Below, piece after piece: positions 3,022 through 6,000 of a stretch of 64,000 nucleotides of DNA (position 1 is its first letter; each line of letters begins with the position of its first letter). Below the pieces are notes generated by a model. The model was not told where the DNA came from. It was given only the letters and a program-made list of their open reading frames with translations, and did no database searches. Origin of the DNA: Bacteroidaceae bacterium (GTDB lineage: Bacteria > Bacteroidota > Bacteroidia > Bacteroidales > Bacteroidaceae). The translations under genes were made by a program, and so were the position numbers. The stretch lies in contig JAKSIP010000011.1 in the NCBI GenBank assembly GCA_024398715.1, forward strand, positions 880 through 64,879. Reading direction: 5' to 3'.

Positions 3022-6000
3022 ATGAAAAAGATAATAGGACTCATCTGTTTTGCCACTCTTCTGCTGGCAGGATGTGATGTAAATGAGTTGGAGAACCTGA
3101 AGAGTAGAAAGGGAGACTGTCCAACGTTCCATGCATCATTTGGCGATTCTGCGGATGAAACGACCAAGACGTACGTTGATGAGGATATGTCTCTTCGCTG
3201 GACGGAGGATGACAGACTTTCCATTTTTGTCGGCAATACCTATAACCACGAATACAAATACGATGGGGAGACTGGGGCGAACAATGGTTCATTCTCGGCC
3301 ATAAGCAACCCCGAGTTTATTGCCGCTGAGCCTTTGGAAGCCAATTATGCAGTATATCCTTACAATCCTTCCAATGAGATGAGTTCGGATGGCAGTATGT
3401 CTGTCATTCTGCCATCCGTCCAGAAGTATGCGCAGAATTCATTCGGTCTGGGAGCCAACACGATGGTTGCCGCAACCGAGAACAAAGAGGACAACTTCCT
3501 CCAGTTCAAGAACCTGTGCGGCTATGTCGTAGTTAAATTATACGGAGAAGGGACAGTGACTTCCATAAAACTGGAGGGTAACGATGGGGAGAAAATCAGC
3601 GGCAAGGCCGATGTTCAGGCTGCCTTTGGCACTCTTCCTTCAGTAACAATGTCAGAAGAAGCAACCACTTCAATCACACTTGATTGCGGAGATGGCGTAG
3701 CTCTTGGCACAACCGCTGAAACTGCCACTGAATTCTGGTTATGTGTACCTCCAGTAACATTCAGCAAGGGCTTTACGGTTACAGCCACCAAGGACGATGG
3801 CTGGCAGATGATCAAGAGCACGTCGTCATCAAAGGAAGTTGTCAGAAACACAAAGAATGCCCTGACTCCGATTGAGGCGGTGTTTGATCAAAAGCCCGAC
3901 AATAGTGCCGCTCTCGCGCAAGAGCGTGAAGCATTGATGGCTATTTATGATGCTGTTTCTGAGGAAAGTAAAACAATATTGTCCAATGGCAATTGGGGAA
4001 GTGACAAACCTGTTTCTTCGTGGGATTTTCTAATTTTTAATTCTGAAGGAAATGTTATTGAATTAATTCTTGGGGAAACCGATTTCATTAAAGCCATTCC
4101 TCCAGAGATCAGATATTTGAAAAAGCTTAAGCGAATTTTTATCTATGGGACTAATTTTTCAAACACGCTGGAAAATCCAAGAGGTATTGAAGGCTGTACT
4201 ATTCCAAATGAGGTTGGAGAATTGTCAGAACTTGAAGAATTCTATATTCGAGGAGATTTTGTGGGGTGTATTCCTAAGGAATTTTCAAAATTAAAAAAGC
4301 TGAAAAGTTTAGCCATTACAGAAACAGGCATTAGTGGAGAAATTCCAAAAGAGATAGGAGATATTGAGACCTTGGAAGTTTTATATCTTGCGTTCAACCC
4401 CTTAACAGGGAAGATACCGAGCGAACTTGGGAAACTATCTAATCTGCGTTCATTGATTCTTCATGGGCGCGAATCTCAAATCTCAGGATCTTTACCTATT
4501 GAGATATGTAATTTACCCAAACTAGAGGAGCTATATTTAGGTGGACAGTTATCTGGTGAAATTCCTCACGAAATAGGTAATTTAAAAAAACTTAAGAGAC
4601 TTGTCGTCAATTGGTCAAACATAGGTGGTGAACTTCCAATGGAACTGGGAAATCTAACGAACCTTGTATTATTACAAATTGATGACAGTCCGATTAGCGG
4701 AAGTATCCCTAGTTCGTTGGCAAACTGTAAGAACCTTGAAGCGCTATTAATAGAAGCGTGTCCTATTACTGGACCTCTGCCTAAGTGGATTTCGGAAATC
4801 AAAAGTCTGAAAAAATTAAGTTTCTATATGACAAATATGTCGGGAACAGTACCGAAAGAATGGGCACAATGTCCGTTGCTATGGGATATCAATCTTAGTG
4901 GATGTCCCAATCTTTATGGTAGCATTCCTGAGGAGTTGATGGAAATGGATGCGTTCAAGTATCGTTGGGGGAATTGGGTCAACGGATCAAATTTCAATCT
5001 TATTGGTGTGAAGATACCTGCGCCTGATTTCAATGTTGTATCTTTAGATGGCGTGCCAATTAGTTCTGCAGAAGAGTATGCCAAAAACAAATTTACGATT
5101 CTATATCAATGGAATTACTGGTGTCCATGCATTTCAGAAACACCAAAACTTGTTGAATTATACAATAAATATCACGAACTTGGTCTAAATGTCATAGGAT
5201 GGTCTGATGATGACGATGAAGGATATCTTGATAGCCAACCTATGCGTGAAACTATTGCAAAATATGGCATGCCATGGCACAATTTTGTTGTTCCTGCAGG
5301 AGAAAGAGACGGATACGGAGTCTTTGGTAACGTAGCTAATAAATACCCTGGAAATATTGCTGGCGCAATAGCACTAGTTGATGAAGATGGCTATATCATT
5401 TGGAGTAACCTTTATGACTCAATGGAGAACCTTGAAAAGATTATTGACCGTTACTATGAAGGCACCCCTACTATATATTCATCAACAGATTACTCCTCAG
5501 ACGGCGTAGTCTATAAGCTCCAATCTGCAAGCGAAGGCAAAGGCATAAATGTGATTTTAATGGGAGACGGCTTTACAGACAAACAAATTGCGGATGGTAC
5601 ATACCATGACATCATGAATACAATGAAGAATTCATTCTTTCAGGAAGAACCGTTTGCATCTTCTAAGCAATTCTTTAATGTTTATGAAGTAACGGTTGTC
5701 TCAGAGAACGAATACAAAGATAATGGAAATACATCCTTAAAAACGTGGTTGGGGGATGGCACGTTGGTCGGAGGAAATAATAGTCGTTGTATTGATTACG
5801 CACTAAAAGCCATTGATTCAGAATTAATGGATGATGCCATTATAGTTGTTGCGATTAATTCAACAGCCTATGCAGGAACTTGCTATATGTATAACATTTC
5901 AGAAGGCGACTATGGAAAAGGATTAGCCGTTTCATATTTCCCCATAGGAGAAGATAACGAGCAAATTGCGAACCTGATACACCACGAGGCTGGAGGTCAC

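Follow-up and report, generated by a model that had tools for sequence, protein, structure and literature searches.

How do two neighboring genes that differ over most of their length come to share long stretches without a single mismatch? The question is raised by two tandem lipoprotein genes (gene 1 and gene 2) of an uncultured Bacteroidaceae bacterium of the herbivore gut. They lie at the 5' end of the 64,000 nt analyzed here, termed the window, which corresponds to positions 880-64879 of contig JAKSIP010000011.1 (C3). The contig belongs to a metagenome-assembled genome (MAG) of 2.1 Mb in 71 contigs, and all identities between copies reported below are those of the assembled contig of this single MAG. 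Coordinates refer to the window unless a contig is named. An earlier note, made from the letters of the sequence, had described a 401-bp block of perfect identity inside the otherwise diverged paralogs and had taken it as the signature of recent gene conversion. This proposal is supported by a drop of synonymous divergence, by a runs test, by the identities among homologues and by discordant trees. As a whole, the locus is best explained by recent gene conversion of two tracts between old tandem paralogs, and we put the probability of this explanation at roughly 0.7.

Two perfect blocks in diverged tandem genes

The two proteins are 55% identical overall. Both start with a signal peptide of the lipoprotein type (MKKATLLLTLVSILMVSC in gene 1 and MKKIIGLICFATLLLAGC in gene 2) and share one layout, which consists of a pilin-like N-terminal module (N-module), leucine-rich repeats (LRR), an AhpC/TSA-thioredoxin-like domain and Peptidase_M64. 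Pfam matches to LRR, AhpC-TSA and Peptidase_M64 were found in both genes. The locus is composed of the following features:

1..2984, plus strand: gene 1, encoding a lipoprotein of 1130 amino acids (aa); its open reading frame (ORF) starts at C3:471, 408 nt before the window
78..478, plus strand: block 1, gene 1 copy, covering the second of the two beta-sandwich domains in the pilin-like N-module (domain limits from the structure model)
479..2447, plus strand: gene 1 diverged core with linker, LRR, thioredoxin-like domain and first M64 half
2448..2683, plus strand: block 2, gene 1 copy, beginning within the HEAGGH zinc-motif codons of M64
2684..2984, plus strand: gene 1 3' end; its counterpart in gene 2 is 6231-6531 and the protein is nearly identical
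2985..3021, plus strand: intergenic spacer of 37 nt between gene 1 and gene 2
3022..6531, plus strand: gene 2, the tandem paralog, encoding a lipoprotein of 1169 aa with the same architecture as gene 1
3508..3908, plus strand: block 1, gene 2 copy, identical to 78..478
3909..5994, plus strand: gene 2 diverged core, the M64 half of which is closest to the homologue on contig L030 (73% nucleotide identity)
5995..6230, plus strand: block 2, gene 2 copy, identical to 2448..2683

Along gene 1 the nucleotide identity to gene 2 climbs in 5' to 3' direction from 0.44 and reaches 1.0, which it keeps until position 478. Positions 78-478 equal positions 3508-3908 (register +3430) over 401 bp with 0 mismatches, and exactly two copies of this block occur in the whole genome, both on C3. 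The closest mismatches upstream are located at 57, 62, 71 and 77, those downstream at 479, 485, 494, 497, 506 and 509, and similarity is lost past approximately position 510. Alignment at this register and positional comparison thus agree with the earlier note, which had listed the mismatches at 62, 71 and 77, a collapse of similarity soon after 478 and sharp edges on both sides of a mismatch-free block. In a codon alignment of the two genes, 0 of the 94 synonymous sites within block 1 differ. The proportion of differing synonymous sites (pS) is 0.42 in the 26 codons before the block and 0.64 in the 10 codons after it (477-506).

Behind block 1 follows a core of about 1.95 kb, in which the two proteins share only 20-45% of their residues when read in 30-codon windows. 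Its first ~30 nt and last ~13 nt in gene 1 are conserved at the protein level while their synonymous sites differ. Identity returns abruptly at position 2435, and a second perfect block, which the same note had reported separately, extends over 236 bp without mismatch (2448-2683 and 5995-6230, register +3547). Here, 0 of 45 synonymous sites differ, as compared with a pS of 0.75 in the four preceding codons (2436-2447) and of 0.71 in the 30 codons that follow, where the corresponding proportion for nonsynonymous sites (pN) is 0. From the end of block 2 to the stop codon the nucleotide identity amounts to 80-87%, with a pS of 0.48 over all 100 codons, and in the first 30 of these codons the differences are all synonymous. 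The almost identical protein with heavily diverged synonymous sites at 2684-2984 and 6231-6531 indicates an old divergence under purifying selection.

The lengths of the perfect runs were assessed by a permutation test, in which the differences were shuffled within the alignable modules (20,000 trials). The alignable part of the N-module contains 77 differences in 816 sites; the longest run obtained by permutation was 142, compared with 401 observed. For the module of block 2 the respective values were 131 and 236. The outcome did not change when third codon positions alone were used.

The mosaic is also visible in base composition. The GC content at third codon positions (GC3) is 0.35 in the core of gene 1. 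Across all family members it ranges from 0.48 to 0.64 in the conserved modules and from 0.27 to 0.37 in the cores, and for the long ORFs of the genome the mean is 0.457 and the 5-95% range 0.36-0.54. A separate remark on composition in the earlier note is thereby confirmed and extended to seven homologues. The GC3 mosaic fits a long-term recombination bias as well as different origins of the parts, and proves neither.

Age of the duplication and probable direction of transfer

The comparison set consisted of six contigs from other assemblies (L028-L033), two of which (L028 and L029) carry tandem pairs, and nine homologues were compared. In the stretch that corresponds to block 1, all other pairs among these homologues are 76-94% identical, and in the stretch before the block 77-93%. 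The pair of gene 1 and gene 2 rises from 80.4% before the block to 100% within it. In the block-2 stretch the other homologue pairs are 58-94% identical.

These values bear on the idea that the blocks are kept identical by constraint on the nucleotide sequence itself, that is by selection on DNA or RNA as in an embedded element or an overlapping gene. Because the block-1 stretch is just 76-94% identical among the homologues from the six other assemblies, no better than the neighboring stretch, constraint of this kind is not the cause. There is also no block-specific long ORF in another frame. We rejected this explanation on account of the diverged homologues and consider its probability close to nil.

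In a tree of the pre-block stretch, gene 1 groups with the first gene of the L029 pair, L029_b (support 91/93), and gene 2 with the L031 gene (92/92) in a clade that also contains L029_c, all of these supports being below 95. In the tree of the block the copies of gene 1 and gene 2 are identical. Since each copy groups with genes of other genomes outside block 1, the duplication is old, whereas the identity within the block arose recently. The order of the genes leads to the same view. Positions 3426-4766 of C3 (window 2547-3887) align without gaps to positions 9155-10495 of L029, an independent MEGAHIT contig, with 89.5% identity over 1341 bp. This colinear unit runs from the 3' end of gene 1 across the 37-nt spacer into the 5' module of gene 2, and the cores downstream of it are unlike, with LRR_14 in the window and LRR_5 in L029. 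Since the colinearity with L029 extends over the junction of the two genes, their tandem order is real and older than the split of these organisms. A tandem arrangement that arose as a chimera of strain alleles was rejected for the same reason.

The closest relatives of block 2 are found in L033 (91.5%) and L028_b (89.3%). The flanks of the block in gene 1 have the same relatives, and the flanks in gene 2 do not, since its core resembles L030 (73%) and its 3' end L031 (94%). Gene 1 was thus probably the donor of block 2 and gene 2 the recipient, judging from these affinities.

The available data suggest the following course of events. Gene 1 and gene 2 go back to an old tandem duplication of a gene for a modular surface lipoprotein, in which a lipid anchor is followed by a two-domain stalk of the type-V-pilin-like kind, then by LRR, a thioredoxin-like domain and, at the end, an M64 metallopeptidase. 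Recent non-reciprocal homologous recombination of the RecA type would have replaced two stretches of one copy by the corresponding sequence of the other, namely 401 bp in the second pilin-like domain and 236 bp that open the conserved C-terminal M64 half, the latter probably with gene 1 as the donor. The inner ends of the tracts lie where DNA homology to the diverged core stops, and the outer ends within sequence that is conserved in protein and diverged at synonymous sites. The conserved end modules provide homology that is shared across the family, where LRR_14, LRR_5 or Big_2/Lcl_C middles follow the same N-module.

Assembly and alternative orders of events

Several observations weigh against gene conversion as set out above. 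Five pairs of contig ends in the genome share an overlap of exactly 55 nt, and longer overlaps do not occur, as is characteristic of a SPAdes-type assembler run with a final k of 55. The graph of such an assembler represents a repeat longer than k by a single edge that is used twice; the two copies probably stem from one such edge and would then be identical by construction. Isolated true differences between the copies may therefore be hidden, because one repeat edge emits both of them. The pairing of each core with its gene ends rests on the paired-end resolution of the assembler. The donor of block 1 is not singled out, because its closest relatives are almost equally similar to it (89.2% versus 88.7%). 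Finally, no conspecific strain was found among 40 relatives searched (best match 46% at the amino acid level) or among 59 other genomes of the genus (best N-module match 38%), and we infer the timing and the non-reciprocity, as well as the mechanism, the direction of transfer and the number of events (one or two), from the pattern in this one genome. The 90%-identity protein clusters of gene 1 and of gene 2 have a single member each. The exact protein of gene 1 has a second record in GCA_024500545.1, and a search of the protein database returned no other record of the exact protein of gene 2. A scan of metagenomes of the Joint Genome Institute (JGI) gave two matches, both distant.

The assembler could thus have merged two similar but non-identical copies into one consensus edge that was written twice, by which perfect, sharp-edged identity would be created or exaggerated. 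In accordance with this, metaSPAdes masks bulges by design and builds a consensus, with aggressive bulge collapsing and consensus repeat traversal (PMC5411777), and the contig overlaps of exactly 55 nt are typical of SPAdes. All long repeats within contigs of the genome are perfect as well. In 251 intragenomic alignments just two isolated differences with at least 55 perfect bases on either side were detected, and as a control of how the assembler treats isolated single-nucleotide differences, 2 in 251 are too few to be informative. However, a merged edge requires real shared 55-mers, so that a real tract of low divergence must exist, and copies that differ every 5-10 nt, as the flanks do, were kept apart by the assembler. 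Gene 1 and gene 2 are also in frame and colinear with their relatives throughout the blocks. Merging would at most have turned an identity of ~98% or more into 100%, and the signal of conversion would stay. We therefore regard an origin of the blocks in the assembly as unlikely.

Another explanation assumes one long homogenization over ~2.6 kb (78-2683) or a renewed duplication, after which the core was replaced by a divergent cassette; alternatively, the cores were swapped by excision via block 1 and re-integration via block 2. The perfect blocks would then be leftover homology arms. Both blocks indeed adjoin the diverged core, gene 2 is a three-way mosaic, its core resembling L030, its block 2 L033 and its 3' end L031, and across the family the N-module is joined to differing middles at one and the same junction. 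Yet no donor for a replacement of the core was found, L030 having a DNA identity of just ~72%, and two independent tracts that halt at the limit of homology explain the pattern equally well. Moreover, the inner edges lie 13-30 nt into sequence that is conserved in protein and diverged at synonymous sites, as expected if the ends of the tracts are set by homology. Core replacement or swapping appears rather improbable to us, and conversion of two tracts is preferred.

Domain architecture and distribution of the family

For the first ~300 residues no Pfam family and no significant sequence match in the PDB was obtained, and NCBIfam showed just generic LRR similarity far below the cut-offs. A first structure model of the N-module, built from a 10-sequence alignment, reached a predicted local distance difference test (pLDDT) score of 43.7 and was discarded; a model from a 47-sequence alignment reached 84.9. 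With the latter, Foldseek returned 3T2L, 3UFI and 4K4K with a probability of 1.00 (E-values down to 3.5e-8), Mfa3 (5NF4) with 0.98 and the LRR protein BT_0210 (4ECN) with 0.96, at TM-scores of just 0.40-0.52. The first three are type-V-pilin-like "cell adhesion" proteins of Bacteroides, and the likeness to BT_0210 is at its N-terminus. According to this model, the N-module is predicted to adopt a two-beta-sandwich fold of the type V pilin (fimbrillin) kind, which follows the lipoprotein signal peptide with its cysteine. The Pfam families Mfa_like_1 and Mfa_like_2 gave no match to the N-module of the window itself. An Mfa_like match was present only in the distant homologue L030 (51 bits), to the profile of which the module of the window is weakly related (E = 0.027).

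Peptidase_M64 scores were 76.7 bits in gene 1 and 70.3 bits in gene 2 with a gathering cut-off of 26, and both proteins are predicted members of Peptidase family M64. Relatives in the PDB are 4DF9 and 3P1V. The zinc motif, at 2436-2453 and 5983-6000, reads HEAGGH (HExxGH). In the Bacteroides M64-like proteins 4DF9 and 3P1V it is HEFGH, shorter by one residue, and the HMMER alignment has a gap at that point. The longer form is common to all close homologues as HEAGGH, HEALGH or HEAVGH. An HExxGH motif is reminiscent of dipeptidyl peptidase III (M49).

The protein database contains a family of proteins of ~1100 aa that share the N-module (87-90% amino acid identity) and the M64 tail and that differ in their middles, which are LRR_14, LRR_5 (BspA-type) or Big_2 plus Lcl_C. 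The N-module also heads lipoproteins of 323-1277 aa from Alistipes, Tidjanibacter, Rikenellaceae and other Bacteroidales MAGs from ruminant and horse guts, and the closest named genome to the source of the window is a Candidatus Cryptobacteroides MAG. Tandem pairs are frequent in loci of the family, and their modules are 65-94.5% identical. The tandem genes for proteins of 603 and 1017 aa in an Alistipes MAG from sheep colon, for instance, share a 3' block of 858 bp (L055:1469-2326 and 4745-5602) that is 94.5% identical, sharply bounded and ends exactly at both stop codons. The identities in these pairs fit recurrent exchange with subsequent decay. Most contigs of the family were assembled with MEGAHIT at k141, with which a perfect repeat of more than 141 bp within one contig is impossible. 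Perfect blocks would be missed in these contigs, because such assemblies cannot hold them.

Neighboring genes and other repeats

Of the neighboring ORFs scanned with Pfam, the one upstream encodes a Big_2 protein, and those downstream encode a lipoprotein of 70 aa, an Lcl_C protein and an adenine deaminase. No recombinase was found among these ORFs; minus-strand ORFs in 1-9 kb lay outside that scan. The gene of the 70-aa lipoprotein (6528-6740) overlaps the stop codon of gene 2 (ATGA). Small genes homologous to it are located 3' of the M64 genes in L028, L030, L031 and L032, and after gene 1 just the first bases of such a gene are left. Before the window, directly upstream of gene 1, the contig opens within a Big_2 Ig-like repeat gene (L002:3-452 = C3:3-452), so that the contig break probably lies within a repeat-rich Big_2 surface-protein gene.

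Two further long repeats were observed outside the window. On contig C1, perfect direct repeats of 486 bp (33022-33507 and 39070-39555) with wholly unrelated flanks bracket ~6 kb with minus-strand ORFs of 359 and 389 aa, which may be an integrated element. On contig C4, a perfect direct repeat of 936 bp (67284-68219 and 69761-70696) extends over genes for small exported proteins that lie in tandem. A copy downstream seems to be truncated, and the repeat adds another instance of tandem duplication or conversion to this genome.

Comparison with known systems

Interlocus gene conversion and concerted evolution are known in bacteria from tufA/tufB and from babA/babB of Helicobacter pylori, where sharp tracts end at positions at which identity drops. 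The blocks described here are likewise sharply bounded, homology-dependent tracts of identity inside diverged paralogs. In contrast to the tuf genes, which are dispersed and homogenized over most of their length, just the edges of the modules are affected here, beside a heterologous core.

In the pilE/pilS system of Neisseria, vlsE of Borrelia and tprK of Treponema, silent truncated cassettes feed variable segments into one expression site. Segmental gene conversion in surface-protein genes is common to these systems and the locus in the window, but here both genes are complete and the conserved parts rather than the variable core were converted. Cassette-type antigenic variation was rejected, as both ORFs are complete and have signal peptides and the cores are still 20-45% identical. 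A shufflon or invertible segment was also rejected. The repeats have direct orientation, just weak and short inverted pairs occur in 1-8000, and the neighboring ORFs scanned with Pfam include no recombinase gene.

The closest published case is the tandem lipoprotein-like (lpl) cluster of Staphylococcus aureus, in which a conserved stretch within each ORF is the site of homologous recombination; shuffling affects the variable parts, and the 3' end of a gene remains linked to the spacer and to the 5' end of the next gene (Tsuru & Kobayashi 2008, PMC2568036). Both cases involve tandem lipoprotein paralogs and a linked unit across two genes, which here is the one colinear with L029 at 89.5%. The lpl genes have one central conserved region, whereas two conserved modules surround one variable core in the window. 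The present locus also differs in having just two genes, in belonging to the Bacteroidales, in its protein folds and in being known from one MAG. Domain rearrangement and allelic exchange have furthermore been described for kgp, rgpA, hagA, fimbrial and Rag genes of Porphyromonas gingivalis (Dashper et al. 2017, PMC5266723). As in that species, a member of the Bacteroidales carries modular surface proteins of the protease, adhesin or fimbrial type with a mosaic from homologous recombination that is unrelated to genome phylogeny. The proteins of P. gingivalis are cysteine proteases and adhesins that are cargo of the type IX secretion system and were studied in cultured strains, whereas those described here are pilin-like LRR-M64 lipoproteins from a single MAG. 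The locus is an ordinary and clean case of the well-known recombination between tandem surface-protein genes, and it points to no new mechanism.

Implications for gut Bacteroidales

Blocks of this kind break or blur short-read assemblies, so that neither the number of copies nor the exact sequence that a MAG shows for these genes is reliable. It is reasonable to expect from the arrangement of the repeats, as the earlier note had suggested, that copy number and chimeras may vary within populations.

The analysis defines an architecture, composed of a pilin-like module, LRR, a thioredoxin-like domain and M64 with HExxGH, that is uncharacterized and widespread in Bacteroidales of herbivore guts. 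The locus is an example of how gut Bacteroidales keep anchor, stalk and catalytic tail uniform beside very different binding cores. As a tentative and rather doubtful extension, the N- and C-modules might serve as portable homology arms of a recombinational cassette exchange, by which cores of LRR, thioredoxin-like domain and protease are swapped between tandem genes and between co-resident Bacteroidales of herbivore guts (Cryptobacteroides, Alistipes, Tidjanibacter). If this were true, long-term biased gene conversion would explain the GC3 of 0.48-0.64 in the arms versus 0.27-0.37 in the cores, and the exchange of cassettes would make the binding specificity of pilus-tip-like surface proteins more diverse.

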